Below, piece after piece: positions 3,270 to 43,272 of a stretch of 64,000 nt of DNA. The stretch lies in sequence record LC788708.1; one strand, given 5' to 3'. Origin of the DNA: Escherichia coli phage AZ21. The translations under genes and the position numbers were made by a program. Within the stretch, counting starts at the first letter, position 1. Every line of letters starts with the position of its first letter. The notes below the pieces were generated by a model, which was not told where the DNA came from, searched no databases, and saw nothing but the letters and a program-made list of their open reading frames with translations.

Positions 3270-4415
3270 ATGACTACTTTACTAAACCTGAATTGGGATC
3301 ATACTAACGCTGACCTTTTCCTGGGAGATTCTCTCGGTATCGCAGATTATGTACGTGTAGCACATCCAGAACTAGAACGTCTGGCACTTCTGCAACGCTC
3401 TCAATTTTGGACTGAAACTGAAATCAGTCTGGAAGCAGATAAGAAACAATGGCCCAATCTCCCTCGTGAAATTCAGGAAATTACACTCCTGAACTTAGCA
3501 TGGCAAACTCAAACTGATTCCTTTATCAGTCGTGCCCCTGAAGCAGCTATTATGCCACTTGTAAGTCGTCCAGAATTGGAAGGTATGCTCAAACAGTGGA
3601 GCTATTTTGAAGACCTGCATAGTCGTGCTTATAGCAATATTATTCGTAATGTGCTGACTGATCCAGCAGAATTTATTGATTCTGTAACCAAAAACCAAGA
3701 AGCATTCGCGCGCATCGCTGATTCTGTTGAACTATTCGATGAACTGTACCAGTTAGGTCAGTATTTCATCGCAGTACGCGATCATCGTGGAGACAATACA
3801 TATCCAGAAACTGAGTTCCCTGAAGTTAAACGTGAAACTCAGGCTAAACTATTGGACGCTTACTTTGCGATCTATGGTCTGGAAGCAATGCAGTTTTACG
3901 CATCCTTTGCATGTACCTTTGCATTAGCAGAGAACGATATTCTGCAAGGTATTGCTAAAAATCTGCAATTAATCGCTAAAGATGAAGCTCTGCACACTCA
4001 GATGTCCAAAGCAATCATCCAGATTATGTTTCAGCAATTTGACAAAGATCTGGTAGATGAGGCAGTAGCTAAAGCACCAGCACAGCTCCTGAAAACTCTG
4101 AAAACTGAAATTGAATGGGGTCATTTCATTTTCAAAGGTCGTAGTCTGATTGGCTTGAATGCAGAACTTCTAGAAGAATATCTGTACTTTGTGGGGCGCA
4201 ATGCATTTATGCACATCGGTGTAGAATGGCCTAGTCACTTACCAGTAATCACCAAAAACCCTATTCCGTGGATCATGAACTGGTTGGATACTACTTCTCT
4301 ACAGCCTGCTCCGCAAGAAATCCAGATTGGTGCAGCTTACCGTGTAGGTCAGGTAACTGAGACCTCTACTGATACTCTGAAAGATCTGGGTAATGAATTT
4401 GGAGATTTCTTATGA
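3270..4415 (+). CDS. nrdB: ribonucleotide reductase small subunit
   Basis: 381 aa directly after nrdA with RBS; length and helical di-iron-type sequence consistent with NrdB. Confidence 0.8.
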   Translation: MTTLLNLNWDHTNADLFLGDSLGIADYVRVAHPELERLALLQRSQFWTETEISLEADKKQWPNLPREIQEITLLNLAWQTQTDSFISRAPEAAIMPLVSRPELEGMLKQWSYFEDLHSRAYSNIIRNVLTDPAEFIDSVTKNQEAFARIADSVELFDELYQLGQYFIAVRDHRGDNTYPETEFPEVKRETQAKLLDAYFAIYGLEAMQFYASFACTFALAENDILQGIAKNLQLIAKDEALHTQMSKAIIQIMFQQFDKDLVDEAVAKAPAQLLKTLKTEIEWGHFIFKGRSLIGLNAELLEEYLYFVGRNAFMHIGVEWPSHLPVITKNPIPWIMNWLDTTSLQPAPQEIQIGAAYRVGQVTETSTDTLKDLGNEFGDFL

Positions 4416-4945
4416 TTACAGCAATGTATGCAGTTGGGCCGAATGGGGAGTTCGGCCTCCGCGGTAAACTTCCATGGGGTTCCTTCAAAGAAGAACTAGA
4501 TGCTTTCTATTCTCAACTGGACGTATTAAATCCAGATAACATCATCATTGGTGCGGGTACTTATTTAGCTCTTCCATACGCCGTTAGAGAACGTATGATT
4601 AGGGCTTCTGACCTATTTATTCGTGTTGATCGTCCACTGCCAGACGATATTACGCATGATATTTACACTCCAATTTCTAAGATTGGGGATACATTACCTA
4701 CGTTTCTGAAAGATCAGCAGACAGTGGTTTTAGGTGGCGCAACATTATTGTACGAAATGTATATTCATGGACATATTGAGAGTGCTTTTGTATCCACAAT
4801 CTTTAGTAGTCAAAAACTAGAGGCAGATGTACATCTGGATAATATGATTCTAGATTACAACTATGAATCTACTCGTTTAGTTTACGCAACTGGCGCAAAC
4901 AGTGATAACAGCCTGCGATTTGTACAGGAATTGGTTACTTATTAA
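4412..4945 (+). CDS. frd: dihydrofolate reductase
   Basis: 177 aa; N-terminal GxxxxLPW and central GGATL pattern like FolA; start overlaps nrdB stop. Confidence 0.65.
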
Positions 4946-5799
4946 TGGATCAGTATATCGAAGTTGGAAAACGCATTCTATCAGATGGTCAGTGGGTAAC
5001 GAATCCTAGAACAGGGGTTCGTTGCCTCACTATTATTGATGCAGACTTTACTTTTAACGTAGGTGCAGGGGAATTTCCCCTTATTACTACTCGTAAGGCG
5101 TTTGCAAAACAAGCAATAATGGAAATGATTGGGTATCTACGTGGATATGACTCAGCAGCACAATTCCGTGCTATTGGTGTTAACACATGGAATGCTAATG
5201 CAAATGAAAACTCAGCTTGGCTAGACAATCCATACCGTAAAGGTGAGGATGATATGGGACGAGTCTATGGTGTTCAAGGACGTCAGTGGACTAATTCCGA
5301 TGGTCTTATGTTTGACCAACTAGCCAAGATTTATCATAATCTGAAAAGGGGCATTGATGATCGTGGGGAAATTCTAACCTTCTGGAATCCGGGAGAGTTC
5401 TCAAAGGGTTGCTTACGTCCATGTATGCACACTCATCAGTTCTCTATTTTGGGAGATACATTATACCTGAACTCTTTCCAGAGATCTAATGACTTCCTGT
5501 TAGGCCAAGTATTTAACATGGTTCAGTGCTATACGCTTCTAGCATTAATGGCTCAGATTACAGGCCTTAAACCAGGAATTGCACGCCAGAAGATTATCAA
5601 TCTTCATATCTATGAGGATCAGTATAATGTTTTGATGGAGCATAAGCAATTCGATCGTAAACCTTTTGCACCTCCTACTCTAGAAATTAATCCAAATATC
5701 CGAACTCTGGAGGATGTATTGACCTGGGTAAATAAGGATGATTTTACTGTTCGTGGTTACGAACACCACCCTGCTATTGCATACCCCTTTACGGTATAA
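4945..5799 (+). CDS. thyA: thymidylate synthase
   Basis: FWNPGEF and catalytic [10 protein letters not shown] motifs. Confidence 0.9.
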
Positions 5800-8279: not shown

Positions 8280-8516
8280 ATGCGTAATTTTGTAGCAAAG
8301 AATGATTTTAACCGTGCTAGCACTCATAAGTCCGCTAGAGATTATACACGACTTTCTAGTCATGAGGTAATGGATACCTGTTATGAAGAGCTGGAAGGTA
8401 GCTGGAATGAGTGTCCCGACTTCTCTATGGAAGAGAACTGGGATGTCAGTGAGGATATGCTTCCTGGTTTTAAAGACCCCAAGAAGTGGGAGTCTATTAA
8501 AGAGACAGCTCTTTAA
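8280..8516 (+). CDS. hypothetical acidic protein
   Basis: RBS GGAGAAA then ATG. Confidence 0.35.
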   Translation: MRNFVAKNDFNRASTHKSARDYTRLSSHEVMDTCYEELEGSWNECPDFSMEENWDVSEDMLPGFKDPKKWESIKETAL

Positions 8517-16717: not shown

Positions 16718-16753
16718 CTGATACAGCACTGAGCAAGTTCTTTAAAATTTGAC

Positions 16754-38929: not shown

Positions 38930-39195
38930 TTTATTTTGTCTCCCTCGTTAATCGGTGAGTGAATGATAAGGGTAATTTTCTAGCATAGGCAAATATTATT
39001 TTACTTTTTTATTTTCCTTGCCTAGCGTCTAATTTTATGCTAACCGCGCAGCGGTGCAATAAAGAGCAAACCACGGCGAAGCCACCAGCCCGACGCATTG
39101 AGGCTTTACTTTAATATTACCTTACAGCGTTTAGCTCGTTAGAATGCGTTTTGGGCCACTTAAAATTGATTGCAGTTGTTAACACTACCTTTCTA

Positions 39196-39215
39196 CCCTG
39201 TATATTTATACAGTG
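39196..39215. promoter_or_regulatory. LexA-box-like palindrome CTGTATATTTATACAG
   Basis: Exact reverse complement of the 35202-35217 core; lies upstream of the minus-strand block. Confidence 0.55.
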
Positions 39216-39224
39216 GAATAACCT

Positions 39225-39233
39225 GTGGATAAG
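39225..39233 (-). promoter_or_regulatory. DnaA-box consensus (TGTGGATAA on + strand)
   Basis: Exact reverse complement of TTATCCACA; second copy at about 39298-39306. Confidence 0.6.
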
Positions 39234-39554
39234 TCTGTGCAAAAGTCCTTATATCACCGCCTATCGTGTCAAGTTATTTTGTGCTGTGGAAAACATTGTG
39301 GATAACTTAAATGATAGTGCTTCTCACTTAGGCTAATGATTTCTTATAGTTATTATTTCTCATTAATTTATAAGTATATTATATATTATCAAATAGTTAG
39401 TTGGCTAATGAGATTTTCCGTGATTAATAGTCTGCTAATAATTCAGGTCGTTACAATCCACCAGCATGATTATCATTCTAGCAATTATTAGTCTGCTATC
39501 TTTCCGATACATACTAACAAATAAAAGTCAATTAATTTATTTCATAAAATAAGT

Positions 39555-39591
39555 AGTTATCCACTGGAAAATAAAAGTCAAGTGGATAACT
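39555..39591. repeat. perfect 11 bp inverted repeat AGTTATCCACT-N15-AGTGGATAACT
   Basis: Each arm contains a DnaA-box variant TTATCCACT. Confidence 0.8.
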
Positions 39592-39978
39592 AGGAAAATT
39601 TCATTTTTGCTTTTGGGGATAAGTTATCAACAAGGCTAGAATGCGCCTAAAACGCTCCAGAACGCGATGAAGTTTTTAGCCACCCCATCATAAGGGGATA
39701 GGCCGTTTATCGCTGCCACGAGCTTTTTAGATTTTGTCAAGTAGGGGAAAGCAAATATAAATGAAAAAATTACTTGCCTATTTGCTTTATTTTGTGGTAT
39801 TCGCGCCCGTTTCTTTTAATTTTAGGCCGTCGCCGGACGTGGTGCGGTGAATTTTGTCTTTACGTTTCTTTACAAAAATAAGGTTGCGCCATTTTCGGGA
39901 ATCCCCTATTATTTATCACGTAGGGCGGCAATGACGAACTACACGGCGGGAAGTTTACCGCCACGCTCTTTAAAAATT

Positions 39979-40002
39979 GGGTACATCTTAAAGCCTATCG
40001 GC
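39979..40002. repeat. left arm of 24 bp inverted repeat (GGGTACATCTTAAAGCCTATCGGC)
   Basis: 23/24 match to the reverse complement of 40247-40270. Confidence 0.85.
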
Positions 40003-40034
40003 GGTAAACTTATTTATTATAAGGAATCGACGAT

Positions 40035-40247
40035 ATGAAACAAACTTTATTGATCACTGGCAAGCCTATTAAGGCACTAGATAGCAAAACAAAAAATTTG
40101 TTGACAGTAGCGCAAAGATCGGTAAAATACCGATTCACGCAGTACAAGAAAGACCGCCAGCAAGGTTTAGAAATGATCTGGCGAAACATTATGATTGACT
40201 TGAAAGAAAATCATAAAAAACTGCAAAAAAATTATTTGACAACCTAG
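40035..40247 (+). CDS. hypothetical basic pre-early protein bracketed by the 24 bp inverted repeat
   Basis: 70 aa; stop codon TAG lies in the right repeat arm. Confidence 0.4.
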   Translation: MKQTLLITGKPIKALDSKTKNLLTVAQRSVKYRFTQYKKDRQQGLEMIWRNIMIDLKENHKKLQKNYLTT

Positions 40248-40270
40248 CCGATAGGTTTTAAGATGTACCC
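40247..40270. repeat. right arm of 24 bp inverted repeat (GCCGATAGGTTTTAAGATGTACCC)
   Basis: See left arm. Confidence 0.85.
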
Positions 40271-40391
40271 AGTTCGATAAGAGCGATAACTTGATAAAAT
40301 TTGACGGTCGGTGCTTACCATAATGCGCCCCGCCCCCTAACGGGATATAGCGGCCTACGTGGAGTTCTTTAAATTGATTATAGCGGCGAGA

Positions 40392-40445
40392 GGATTGTTA
40401 CTTATTACCTGCTAGTATTTTCTAGTAGGTAATAAGTAACAATCC
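40392..40445 (+). other. long hairpin, 24 bp stem (23/24) with 6 nt loop
   Basis: GGATTGTTACTTATTACCTGCTAG-TATTTT-CTAGTAGGTAATAAGTAACAATCC, just upstream of the next RBS. Confidence 0.8.
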
Positions 40446-40468
40446 ATCAAATAACTGGAGTTTATATT

Positions 40469-40720
40469 ATGCAAAACGTTATTACCGCGCCTAAAATTGG
40501 TCAATCCGTCTTTATTCCTTTCGTTACTAAAACGGATGAATTAACCGGAAAGGCCGAACGTATTAAAGGTGCGGCGCTTATGCCGTTCGATACAATCGAC
40601 GCGGTATATGCTGAAAATGAACGCAGTAACAACGGCAAGCCCGTTTTTAGCGTTCGCGTTAAATCCGGCGATGTTGTAAAGGTTGTTCAACGCAACGAAA
40701 AATGGGAAGCTGTGTTGTAA
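40469..40720 (+). CDS. hypothetical pre-early protein
   Basis: RBS CTGGAG then ATG; 83 aa. Confidence 0.45.
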   Translation: MQNVITAPKIGQSVFIPFVTKTDELTGKAERIKGAALMPFDTIDAVYAENERSNNGKPVFSVRVKSGDVVKVVQRNEKWEAVL

Positions 40721-40818
40721 TTTAGTGTTAACTTTATATCCCCCTTATTTCAGGGGGATATAACGATTAACATTAAGTTAATCTAATCCCTTAAATTAAA
40801 CTAATAGGAGTTTTTACC

Positions 40819-41226
40819 ATGACTAACGCAAAAACCGCAAAATTCGCATGGAATGAAGAAAACACTCAGAAAGCTGTTACCATGTACCAGCAGTTAATCA
40901 ACGAAAACGGTTTAGATTTTGCAAATAGCGACGGCCTGAAAGAGATTGCAAAAGCAGTAGGCGCGGCCTCCCCCGTATCCGTTCGGTCAAAATTGACCAG
41001 TGCAAAAGCCTATCAAAAAAGCGATAAGCCGCGTAAAGTTGGCGGCGGTAGCTCTGTGCGTAAAGCTCACTATGTGCGAGTAATTGCAAAACACGCTATC
41101 GATTCCGGTATTATCAAAGACGCCGATGATCTGGCAAGCCTTGAAAGTGCTAAACTGGAAACGCTGGACGCGGTGGCGCAACTGTTAGGCGTTGCCGATG
41201 AAGTAAAACAAGCCGTAGGTGAATAA
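40819..41226 (+). CDS. hypothetical pre-early protein, possible A2 homolog
   Basis: 135 aa; RBS TAGGAG; sits on the inner side of the A1-like gene with one small ORF between; name assigned by position and size only. Confidence 0.4.
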   Translation: MTNAKTAKFAWNEENTQKAVTMYQQLINENGLDFANSDGLKEIAKAVGAASPVSVRSKLTSAKAYQKSDKPRKVGGGSSVRKAHYVRVIAKHAIDSGIIKDADDLASLESAKLETLDAVAQLLGVADEVKQAVGE

Positions 41227-41316
41227 TAGTTATACCTTGCCCCCTTCTAGTGAGGGGGCACTAATATAACTGTTTAGCGATAGTTATTTTCTTCCCTTAA
41301 ATCAGGAGTTTTAAAA

Positions 41317-41601: not shown

Positions 41602-43272
41602 ATGATTATTTCCGCAGAAAAACAAACCGTTATCCTGAAAATGGCCGCTGATTTCAATTTCTACGGTAAACGCCTGCGCGCCACTAAACTGGAGGTCTGC
41701 GACGATATTTCAAAAGCGGTCTACGATACAACGAAACACTCCACCGCTATCTGCGACTGGCTGGAAGCAAATAAACCAGCGAAACCAAAAGCGGCAAAAG
41801 TAGCAAAAGCCATTAAAAACGGTGAGCGCCCCGAAGCGGCTGGGATTGTTTCTAGTACCGTGGAGCAGTGGGAAGTAAAACAAGGTAAACGCTTTATTAT
41901 TACATCGATTCAGAATAATACTTTCCCGCATAAAAACTTTTTAGCCTCACTGGAGCAATTTGCTAAATATATCGGGGCTGATTTGCTCGTTTCTAAGTAT
42001 ATTTATAATAAAAACGGTTTTCAAAATGGGGAAGGTGCTGACGGAATCAAATATGATTCCGCGTTTGATAAATATATTTGCAGCAAAAACGTGTTTTTGA
42101 ATAACCGCCGCTTTGCTTTCATGGCTGAAATTAATGTTTTGCCTACCGCAGATTATCCGCTTTCTGGATTCGCAGAAACTGCAACGGCTTTAAATATTGA
42201 AGGTCTGGCAATTGGTCACGCTAAAATTACCGCTGAAAGCGTACCAGCTTTAAAAGGTGAAGTAGTGCGCCGTATGTACTCAACCGGAACGGCAACGCTC
42301 AAAAACTACATTCAGCAGAAAGCAGGACAAAAGGCCGAGGCGCTGCATAACTTCGGTGCGCTTATTGTTGAGTTCGACGAGGACGGGGAATTTTTTGTAC
42401 GCCAGCTTGAAACGATGGACGAAAGCGGGGTATTTTATGATCTGAATGTGTGTGCTACTCCTGCCGGATGCTATGAAACATCGGGGCATGTTTTAGGCTT
42501 GCAGTATGGCGATATTCACGCCGAAAAATTAGATGAGGAGTGCGCCGCCGCGTCATGGGGGCATGGTGATACTTATGGGCTAGTAGATATTCTTAAACCA
42601 AAATATCAGTTTGTGCATGACGTGCATGATTTTACATCGCGCAATCATCATAACCGCGCATCGGGTGTATTCCTAGCAAAACAGTACGCCGCCGGACGTG
42701 ATAAGGTTATTGATGATCTTATCGATACGGGGCGCGTGCTGGAATCAATGGAGCGTGATTTTTCTCAAACAATCATTGTTGAATCGAATCACGATTTGGC
42801 GTTATCCCGTTGGCTTGATGATCGTAATGCTAACATCAAAGACGATCCAGCAAACGCAGAACTGTATCACCGCCTGAATGCTGCAATTTACGAGGCAATC
42901 GGTGAACATGACGAAACGTTCAACGTGCTAGATTATGCGCTGCGCAAGGTTGCAGGTTGTGAGTTTAACGCCATTTTCCTGACCACTGACCAATCTTTCA
43001 AGATTGCAGGCATTGAATGCGGCGTACACGGTCACAACGGCATTAATGGCAGTCGTGGCAATCCCAAACAATTTAAGAAATTGGGCAAGTTAAACACTGG
43101 TCATACTCATACGGCAAGCATTTACGGCGGGGTATATACCGCTGGCGTAGCTGGTAGTCTGGATATGGGTTACAACGTTGGCGCGTCAAGCTGGACGCAA
43201 ACTCATTTAATTACCTATGCAAACGGTCAGCGCACTTTGATTGACTTTAAGAACGGTAAATTTTTTGCGTAA
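41602..43272 (+). CDS. A1: A1-like pre-early protein, calcineurin-like metallophosphoesterase/nuclease
   Basis: 556 aa, the length I recall for T5 A1; metallophosphoesterase motifs YGDIHAE, HDVHDF, ESNHD, GVHGHNG, GHTHT; RBS AATGGAG. Confidence 0.75.
   Translation: MIISAEKQTVILKMAADFNFYGKRLRATKLEVCDDISKAVYDTTKHSTAICDWLEANKPAKPKAAKVAKAIKNGERPEAAGIVSSTVEQWEVKQGKRFIITSIQNNTFPHKNFLASLEQFAKYIGADLLVSKYIYNKNGFQNGEGADGIKYDSAFDKYICSKNVFLNNRRFAFMAEINVLPTADYPLSGFAETATALNIEGLAIGHAKITAESVPALKGEVVRRMYSTGTATLKNYIQQKAGQKAEALHNFGALIVEFDEDGEFFVRQLETMDESGVFYDLNVCATPAGCYETSGHVLGLQYGDIHAEKLDEECAAASWGHGDTYGLVDILKPKYQFVHDVHDFTSRNHHNRASGVFLAKQYAAGRDKVIDDLIDTGRVLESMERDFSQTIIVESNHDLALSRWLDDRNANIKDDPANAELYHRLNAAIYEAIGEHDETFNVLDYALRKVAGCEFNAIFLTTDQSFKIAGIECGVHGHNGINGSRGNPKQFKKLGKLNTGHTHTASIYGGVYTAGVAGSLDMGYNVGASSWTQTHLITYANGQRTLIDFKNGKFFA

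Follow-up and report, generated by a model that had tools for sequence, protein, structure and literature searches.

A conserved long-range helix next to boxA in the pre-early region of T5-like phages and its likeness to the ribosomal RNA leader

The inverted repeat locus of Escherichia coli phage AZ21

We analysed a long inverted repeat in a stretch of 64,000 nucleotides (nt) from Escherichia coli phage AZ21 (LC788708.1), which is referred to as the window. By its sequence the window belongs to a T5-like phage. Over 39700-40600 it shares 100% identity with E. coli phage AZ23; matches to this region, with identities of 60-97%, are found in 449 T5-like phage records. The plus strand of the window corresponds to the minus strand of the left terminal repeat of T5, i.e. 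the first-step-transfer or pre-early DNA, whose main operon in T5 comprises T5.008, T5.007, A2, A1 and dmp. The left arm of the repeat, GGGTACATCTTAAAGCCTATCGGC, is located at 39979-40002 and its reverse complement, matching at 23 of 24 positions, at 40247-40270. The T5 copies of the arms map to 4684-4707 and 4951-4974 of NC_005859. The repeat and the genes around it are as follows.

39965-39975, plus strand: boxA motif GCTCTTTAAAA, putative loading site of NusB/NusE(S10) (consensus match, conservation)
39975-40002, plus strand: 5' arm of the helix, core 39979-40002 (complementarity, covariation)
40035-40247, plus strand: loop gene, homologue of T5.008 (DUF7416/phrog_4718, 70 amino acids (aa)), with the Shine-Dalgarno sequence AAGGA at 40021-40025
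40247-40274, plus strand: 3' arm of the helix, core 40247-40270 (complementarity, covariation)
40279-40285, plus strand: boxA complement AAGAGCG, extending the helix (complementarity)
40469-40720, plus strand: homologue of T5.007, DUF7177
40819-41226, plus strand: A2
41602-43272, plus strand: A1

As a DNA feature, the repeat has almost certainly been noted before, since the arm coordinates of T5 fall inside an "untranslated Repeat Region 1, 4682 to 5310" listed by Davison in a comparison of 25 T5-like phages. Judging by the coordinates alone, the arms presumably are the elements IRA and IRA' of this region, a nomenclature of Wang et al. 2005 that Davison adopted. In that literature the region is treated as untranslated DNA repeats of unknown function, and the text of Davison on Repeat Region 1 mentions neither stems, RNA pairing, boxA, Nus factors nor antitermination. 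Our literature search retrieved no paper combining boxA with T5 and none tying T5 to RNase III processing.

A preliminary description of the window, derived from the sequence, had reported a repeat of 24 base pairs (bp) which in RNA would form a stem closing a loop of about 240 nt. The repeat was found where it had been placed and turned out to be longer. The single mismatch between the arms becomes a G·U pair in plus strand RNA, and the continuous helix comprises 28 bp (39975-40002/40247-40274) including 2 G·U pairs. With this length and a loop of 244 nt between the arms it exceeds the approximately 20 bp of double-stranded RNA flanking a long loop that we took as the minimum for a long-range helix. 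Complementarity reaches 39 nt at 85% (39964-40002/40247-40285), with AAGAGCG at 40279-40285 complementing 39964-39970 and extending the helix across a 4-nt internal loop. In the phages MSP1, bux and SE24 the boxA complement comprises the full 16 nt. The fold of 39940-40300 has an energy of -118.9 kcal/mol (z = -11.6 versus shuffles) and is dominated by the long-range helix. The helix itself contributes -48.9 kcal/mol for 28 bp with 4-nt flanks and -60 kcal/mol for the 35 bp that include the boxA extension. Further copies of the arms with up to 3 mismatches are absent from the 64-kb window (0.00 expected from shuffles). No intrinsic terminator was found at or after the arms, and the 3' arm lacks a following U-run.

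A helix conserved as structure, not as sequence

Homologous loci were gathered from IMG/VR, from GenBank phages and, by means of a pattern located outside the arms, from metagenomes, and 50 distinct Tequintavirus and Epseptimavirus loci were aligned for the analysis of covariation. Both arms were present in all 50 loci. Standard pairs are formed by 98.7% of the core helix cells, compared with 30-48% if the partner columns are slid by 1-3 positions. Both partners had changed in four pairs (U-A to A-U in 14 sequences, C-G via U-G to U-A, and C-G to U-A) and one partner only in nine, all of these including G·U. The observed covariation score was reached by none of 500 shuffles. Furthermore, RNAalifold returned the same 24-bp long-range helix, unprompted, as the main consensus structure. 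In one locus (L020) an extra A in the left arm is compensated by an extra T in the right arm, so that the register is kept. Pairing of the arms has been maintained in evolution, which supports the stem.

In more distant phages, whose T5.007 homologues share 52-72% identity, helices of unrelated sequence are located at the equivalent place and enclose one or two small open reading frames (ORFs). These helices comprise 31 bp in Eos, 28-29 bp in Klebsiella Sugarlandvirus, 20-24 bp in Erwinia phage KEY and about 30 bp in Pectobacterium phage My1. Hence, it is the structure that is conserved and not the sequence. In My1 (L144, 510-1480) the loop-proximal end of the helix, CTGATAGGCTT / AAGCCTATCAG, nearly equals the T5 end, AAGCCTATCGG / CCGATAGGCTT, with the strands swapped.

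The non-Watson-Crick cells of the core provide hints to the strand on which selection acts. There were 58 G·U cells at 9 positions, some of them in 24/50 or 17/50 loci, versus 3 A·C cells at 3 positions, all of them singletons. The duplex of the sense strand is more stable than that of the antisense strand in 11 of 13 representatives. The excess of G·U fits selection on sense-strand RNA. We consider this test supportive and not decisive, because the asymmetry is moderate if counted by position (9 versus 3), because 13 G·U versus 7 A·C positions (p = 0.13) are obtained if the poorly aligned outer pairs are included, and because two lineages, DT571/2 and KEY, favour the antisense duplex.

The only sizeable plus strand ORF between the arms is that at 40035-40247, in agreement with the single small basic ORF described previously; a direct count gives a net charge of about +12. 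It matches Pfam DUF7416 (E = 2e-35; 120.6 bits versus a cut-off of 27) and PHROG phrog_4718 (E = 8e-38), neither of which carries a known function. An AlphaFold2 single-sequence model predicts one long helix from residue 17 to 69 (predicted local distance difference test, pLDDT, 86). The DUF7416 frame is intact in all loci carrying the gene, pooled pN/pS (nonsynonymous to synonymous polymorphism) is 0.21, and variable sites at the three codon positions number 26, 17 and 43; the loop ORF is a real gene under purifying selection. In relatives it mostly encodes 66-67 aa and ends with a TGA stop inside a TTGACA -35 hexamer, 8 nt before the right arm. The window copy has a run of A7 at 40226-40232 where relatives have A6. 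Therefore, its last two residues are replaced, three are added (70 versus 67 aa), and the stop becomes the TAG at 40245-40247. This stop was described as lying in the right arm; it does overlap the arm, but by one base only.

The helix remains while the loop genes change. Among the phages the loop varies from 217 to 426 nt and holds one or two small genes. An ORF of 52 aa (phrog_21018) precedes DUF7416 in the loci L077, L076, L020 and L084, and one of 57 aa does so in other phages. Each added ORF lies behind the conserved ribosome binding site and ahead of the DUF7416 start; stop and start codons overlap, as ATGA or TAATG in the case of the 52-aa ORF. In DT57C and DT571/2 a different ORF of 56 aa replaces DUF7416. 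The loop of KEY contains two unrelated ORFs, and the helix of My1 encloses an ORF of 65 aa, with a DUF7416-like gene outside. The 52-aa ORF was found in both Tequintavirus and Epseptimavirus, which suggests an exchange of this small gene between the two genera.

The preliminary description had also compared the DNA to the ends of a tiny mobile cassette. The arms would then be terminal inverted repeats or, in a wider sense, regulatory blocks at which small genes are swapped by homologous recombination. The differing loop content (DUF7416 alone, with the 52-aa or the 57-aa ORF, the 56-aa ORF alone, unrelated ORFs in KEY and My1) is in line with such boundaries, as is the motif boxA, which is directly repeated outside both arms in several genera. 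On the other hand, this flanking repeat is a functional consensus motif rather than a random duplicated target, and new ORFs enter behind the ribosome binding site and not at the arms. Searches of the window and of IMG/VR located the arm sequence once in each terminal repeat, at this one syntenic T5-like locus only. No empty site was found among more than 50 loci, and no transposase or recombinase is present. Bacterial genomes yielded 13 single, unpaired matches, one of them a T5-like fragment, versus about 35 expected by chance. Since the arms are confined to a single locus and the bacterial matches are unpaired and at chance level, the mobile cassette is rejected, and a role of the arms as recombination boundaries in general appears very improbable. 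The reported absence of a target-site duplication holds for the window, where the flanks differ, but not in the same way for the other genera with their repeated boxA. Two related candidates were likewise dismissed: a miniature mobile element, given the single locus and the differing flanks of the window, and an invertible promoter switch, given that the loop has the same orientation in all loci and no recombinase is encoded nearby.

boxA motifs and promoters around the arms

Immediately 5' of the left arm, GCTCTTTAAAA at 39965-39975 perfectly matches GYTCTTTAANA, the gamma-proteobacterial boxA consensus (PMC5725501). A perfect boxA was found in every genus examined, 10-15 nt before the left arm or 0-4 nt before the helix, and it stays at this place even where the sequence of the helix is entirely different. 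The motif is in sense orientation, with a conserved promoter-like element about 50 nt upstream. In KEY and Eos it is part of a 17-nt identity to the boxA region of the E. coli rrn spacer, GCTCTTTAAAAATCTGG. The elements accompanying boxA and the arms are listed below.

39884-39912, plus strand: predicted promoter P1, -35 TTGCGC (39884-39889), 17-nt spacer, -10 TATTAT (39907-39912)
39945-39962, plus strand: small hairpin GGCGG...CCGCC directly 5' of boxA (minimum-energy fold)
40101-40128, plus strand: promoter P-H22 inside the loop gene, TTGACA, 16-nt spacer, TAAAAT (11/12 consensus positions)
40236-40264, plus strand: internal promoter P3, TTGACA (40236-40241), 17-nt spacer, TAAGAT (40259-40264) (promoter scan)
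40364-40374, plus strand: degenerate second boxA GTTCTTTAAAT, 10/11 consensus positions, about 90 nt beyond AAGAGCG
40392-40445, plus strand: 24-bp hairpin with a 6-nt loop, just 5' of the T5.007 Shine-Dalgarno sequence, kept in all genera

The hairpin in front of boxA is found in most genera; Eos has it with another sequence (GGCAGG...CCTGCC) and KEY with a different loop (GGCGG...CCGCC), but it is not evident in My1 or in the Sugarland locus L141. A second perfect boxA (GCTCTTTAAMAATTTGG, GCTCTTTAAMA) follows 9-17 nt after the right arm in Eos, Sugarlandvirus, KEY, My1 and many Epseptimavirus. In Tequintavirus this position is taken by AAGAGCG, the complement of the first boxA, and about one third of the second-boxA copies of this genus read GTTCCTTAAAT. 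The leader of My1 contains three consensus boxA motifs, located before the left arm, 2 nt after the right arm and a further 481 nt downstream, ahead of the T5.007 homologue. In total, the window holds 5 perfect boxA matches versus 0.84 expected. The other four are located at 8508, 16737, 19302 and 55383, the last two on the minus strand. The one at 16737 is in a hairpin loop just upstream of a promoter-like sequence, TTGATATAATAT, and the remaining three are at gene ends or within ORFs. None of the four is followed by a long-range helix.

The P1 hexamers and their spacing of 16-17 nt are conserved in Tequintavirus, Epseptimavirus, Eos, Uniso31, KEY and My1, with free spacer sequence. Transcription from P1, which is below the threshold of a simple consensus scan, would start at about 39918-39920. 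The right arm forms the spacer, the -10 hexamer and the discriminator of P3, a strong promoter-like site, and -35 and -10 hexamers 17-18 nt apart are also found over the right arm of Eos (TTGACA/TAATAT), Sugarlandvirus (TTGACA/TATTAT), KEY (TTGCAA/CATAAT) and My1 (TTGCAA/TACTAT). Transcripts from P3 would start approximately at the end of the right arm. In T5, 4799-4873 of the minus strand is annotated as 'promoter P-H 22' (NC_005859), and the P-H22 hexamers are conserved in most loci. As P-H22 is located in the loop and P3 in the right arm, the helix could form only in transcripts starting upstream of 39975. For another annotated T5 promoter located just downstream, P-D/E20 (327-bp fragment, 4338-4664), no convincing -35 and -10 hexamers could be placed in the window. 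A leftward promoter in the left arm was considered and discarded: the complement provides a -10-like TAAGAT without a usable -35. Furthermore, TTAGATTTTGTCAAGT (39727-39742) and ACTTGATAAAATTTGA (40289-40304) form a 16-nt complement with G·U that recurs in most Tequintavirus loci. Its left copy reads as a minus-strand TTGACA -35, and the two may be similar promoter-like elements on opposite strands.

The overlap of the right arm with P3 raises the alternative that the arms act as a pair of DNA operators. A phage or host protein binding to both, for instance in the A1-dependent shut-off of the pre-early genes, would place about 270 bp of DNA in a loop and block P3 and P-H22. In favour of this, P3 has its spacer and -10 in the right arm, P-H22 is located in the loop, two sites co-evolving with one protein would also show coordinated changes, and DT571/2 and KEY lack a preference for the sense strand. 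However, an unbroken complementarity of 24-40 bp is far longer than a typical operator, and the left arm overlaps no promoter, as its sequence offers no usable -35 on either strand. The one-sided changes are mostly G·U pairs of the sense strand, which are not favoured at a DNA site, and the compensated indel and the complete sequence turnover between genera suit pairing better than they suit the binding of a conserved protein. An operator also gives no role to the boxA abutting the arm. We therefore regard it as unlikely.

A second alternative is an RNA switch coupled to translation or stability, acting without RNase III or Nus factors. In this case the helix would only stabilise a small messenger RNA (mRNA) or would sense translation of the loop ORF, with the terminating ribosome opening the 3' arm; it could tune expression of T5.007-A2-A1 or the formation of an alternative helix. 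Such a helix is offered by 39951-39962 and 40000-40011, a perfect 12-nt complement (AAGTTTACCGCC / GGCGGTAAACTT) that would close boxA and the left arm in a 37-nt loop. A ribosome sensor is in line with the stop codon 8 nt before the 3' arm in most relatives and overlapping the arm in the window, and small local hairpins touch the Shine-Dalgarno sequence. However, the spacing of stop codon and arm differs where a genus has other loop genes. The alternative helix, kept in most Tequintavirus and Epseptimavirus, is missing in Eos, Sugarlandvirus and the loci L009 and L012, and the conserved boxA is left unexplained. A translational lock, one of the earlier suggestions, does not agree with the position of the Shine-Dalgarno sequence (40021-40025) and the AUG (40035), which are located 19-33 nt inside the loop and outside the long helix. 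A switch of this kind appears improbable. Thus, the operator, gene-swapping and translation-coupled roles are possible minority explanations. The repeat is best explained by its context: a consensus boxA 5' of the left arm, a promoter in the right arm and P-H22 in the ORF.

Likeness to the ribosomal RNA leader and proposed function

A boxA followed by one strand of a long helix is also found in the leader of the bacterial ribosomal RNA (rRNA) operons, rrn. In E. coli, the helix flanking 16S rRNA is the site of cleavage by RNase III, which leaves a 17S precursor extended by 115 nt on its 5' side and by 33 nt on its 3' side. We matched an rrn leader sequence of 53 nt to complete E. coli genomes; it was found with 100% identity in 5,426/5,426 genomes, with a median of 7 sites in each, just 5' of 16S. 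In one of these operons (L149), boxA (GCTCTTTAACA, 78-88) is followed after 2 nt by a continuous 26-bp helix (90-115/1782-1807) flanking 16S, and 78-85 of boxA pair with 1811-1818 across a 4-nt internal loop. The positions of the 17S ends, 104 and 1793, pair with each other in the computed duplex, so the known cleavage site lies midway along the helix. The spacer boxA of this operon, GCTCTTTAAAAATCTGGAT, is the one sharing 17 nt with the first boxA of KEY and Eos, and the second phage boxA, GCTCTTTAACAATTT, equals the rrn leader boxA over 15 nt. In the nut-like sites of rrn the elements are ordered boxB-boxA-boxC, with boxA as the main determinant, according to a review. The complex assembled there brings the leader strand together with the complementary sequence downstream of 16S, which creates the primary RNase III site (PMC8632103).

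The phage locus shares this arrangement. In both, the 5' strand of a continuous helix of 26-28 bp with a long loop comes 2-4 nt after boxA, boxA is partly paired across a 4-nt internal loop (in the window 39964-39970/40279-40285, then 28 bp), a hairpin precedes boxA at the boxB position, and a second boxA is located downstream. In contrast, the phage loop is a translated mRNA of 217-426 nt instead of a stable RNA of 1.5 kb, the phage 3' arm is also a promoter, and the phage helix is a single block, whereas the 16S stalk has several segments; the helix sequences share no homology. As the loop consists of protein-coding ORFs under purifying selection and not of a stable RNA, we do not count the T5-like helix as a member of the rRNA-processing family, though it may work like the rRNA stalk.

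The lambda nut sites are similar insofar as the boxA of nutL and nutR heads the first-transcribed operon, just before the first small basic gene, and CGCTCTTTAAAAATT of the window resembles the lambda nutL sequence CGCTCTTAAAAATTAA. In lambda, boxA is followed by a 15-nt boxB hairpin that binds N, whereas the T5-like hairpin precedes boxA as in rrn and the T5-like boxA fits the full rrn-type consensus. A lambda-type nut site was therefore set aside, given this order of hairpin and boxA and the lack of an N-like Pfam or PHROG match among the loop ORFs. DUF7416 itself is not an essential analogue of N, because it is absent from DT57C and KEY; it is also missing in DT571/2 and located outside the helix in My1. 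The early RNase III sites of T7 provide another parallel, as in both virulent coliphages polycistronic early RNA made by the host polymerase would be cut by host RNase III into defined mRNAs with base-paired ends. The T7 sites are local intergenic hairpins with internal loops, whereas the T5-like helix pairs sequences about 270 nt apart and encloses a gene. The T4-type PeSL cassettes, reportedly described by Arbiol et al. in 2010, consist of an early promoter and a stem-loop flanking small ORFs. Like our locus, they have small accessory ORFs in an early region that vary in content and are framed by conserved blocks of promoter and structure, but they occur in many dispersed copies with local stem-loops, in contrast to the single long-range helix at a single locus.

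Taken together, the arms probably, though far from certainly, form a sense-strand RNA helix within an rrn-like leader that would combine Nus-factor antitermination, RNA chaperoning and RNase III processing. Transcripts from P1 would carry, in this order, the small hairpin, boxA, the 5' arm, the loop with one or two translated genes, and the 3' arm. boxA would recruit the host NusB/S10 together with NusA, NusG and SuhB and render the polymerase resistant to Rho, and the Nus complex would tether the 5' leader to the polymerase. The emerging 3' arm could then anneal with the tethered 5' arm to the 28-bp helix, or 35 bp with the boxA extension. Cleavage of this helix by RNase III, as in the equivalent 16S rRNA helix, would be its most plausible consequence. 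It would release a short mRNA that carries the small genes and has paired ends, and the cleaved T5.007-A2-A1 RNA would obtain a 5' end close to that of transcripts initiated at P3.

Apart from the moderate strand asymmetry and the opposite preference of two lineages, several points weigh against this leader model. The conservation of the right arm is explained in part by P3, and P-H22 is annotated in T5 whereas P1 is predicted only. The extended helix of Tequintavirus would sequester boxA, and the second boxA of this genus is degenerate. The loop is translated, and ribosomes reaching its stop codon, which in most relatives is only 8 nt from the 3' arm, would partly melt the helix. A permissive Rfam scan of 39000-41300 yielded nothing near a gathering score, with microRNA-like hairpin matches only. 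To our knowledge, rrn-type complexes are known mainly on untranslated RNA.

A more far-reaching version, possible but in our view rather doubtful, is that T5-like phages take over the host rRNA transcription machinery in the first minutes of infection, gaining resistance to Rho without a phage N protein and a gene slot enclosed by an RNase III stalk. A consensus boxA after each pre-early promoter would assemble an rrn-type, RNA-chaperoning polymerase complex, and the tethered leader would be brought to a complement that forms part of the next promoter. RNase III cleavage of the stalk would excise the mRNA of a swappable 'gene slot' and would give read-through transcripts the same 5' ends as those initiated internally. 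If so, T5-like phages would be the first virulent phages with a processing stalk that mimics rrn and encloses protein-coding genes. T5 has to express a few kb of first-step-transfer DNA very fast by the unmodified host polymerase and then shut it off. Should the leader module of boxA and helix act as outlined above, it would assign a concrete role to one conserved repeat region of this DNA, predict a dependence of T5-like phages on host Nus factors and RNase III, and could explain the exchange of small accessory genes at a fixed slot. It would also provide a compact natural, N-independent model of leader-to-complement delivery on 300 nt of RNA instead of 1.5 kb, and would be relevant to expression vectors built with T5 promoters and leaders.

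Further structured elements were observed around the helix. In the hairpin at 40392-40445 the outer GGAUU...AAUCC stem is conserved, while the inner stems are unrelated (ACCUGCUA/UAGCAGGU, AGCGUUU/GGCGCU, ACCGAUUU/AAAUCGGU, GCUGGUUAG/UAGCCAGC, AACACUCU/AGAGUGUU); it could be a second processing or stabilising element. Approximately 85 nt between the right arm and the degenerate boxA (40300-40362) are present in Tequintavirus and some Epseptimavirus and absent in others. On inspection of the alignment by eye, they contain apparent hairpins with compensatory changes (GGUGC...GCGCC versus GGCAC...GUGCC; GGUCG...CGGCC versus GGCCG...CGGCC). The gap between T5.007 and A2 includes a perfect 12-bp hairpin at 40734-40763 (TTATATCCCCCT / AGGGGGATATAA), which is not a canonical intrinsic terminator, since no U-run follows. 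Upstream of the locus, DnaA-box-like repeats (TGTGGATAA, TTATCCAC) are clustered at 39150-39640, with repeats in direct and inverted orientation. This cluster is the counterpart of 'Repeat Region 2' of T5, which Davison linked to the injection-stop signal. In T5 itself, the HNH endonuclease gene hegG is inserted between Repeat Region 2 and the arm locus.

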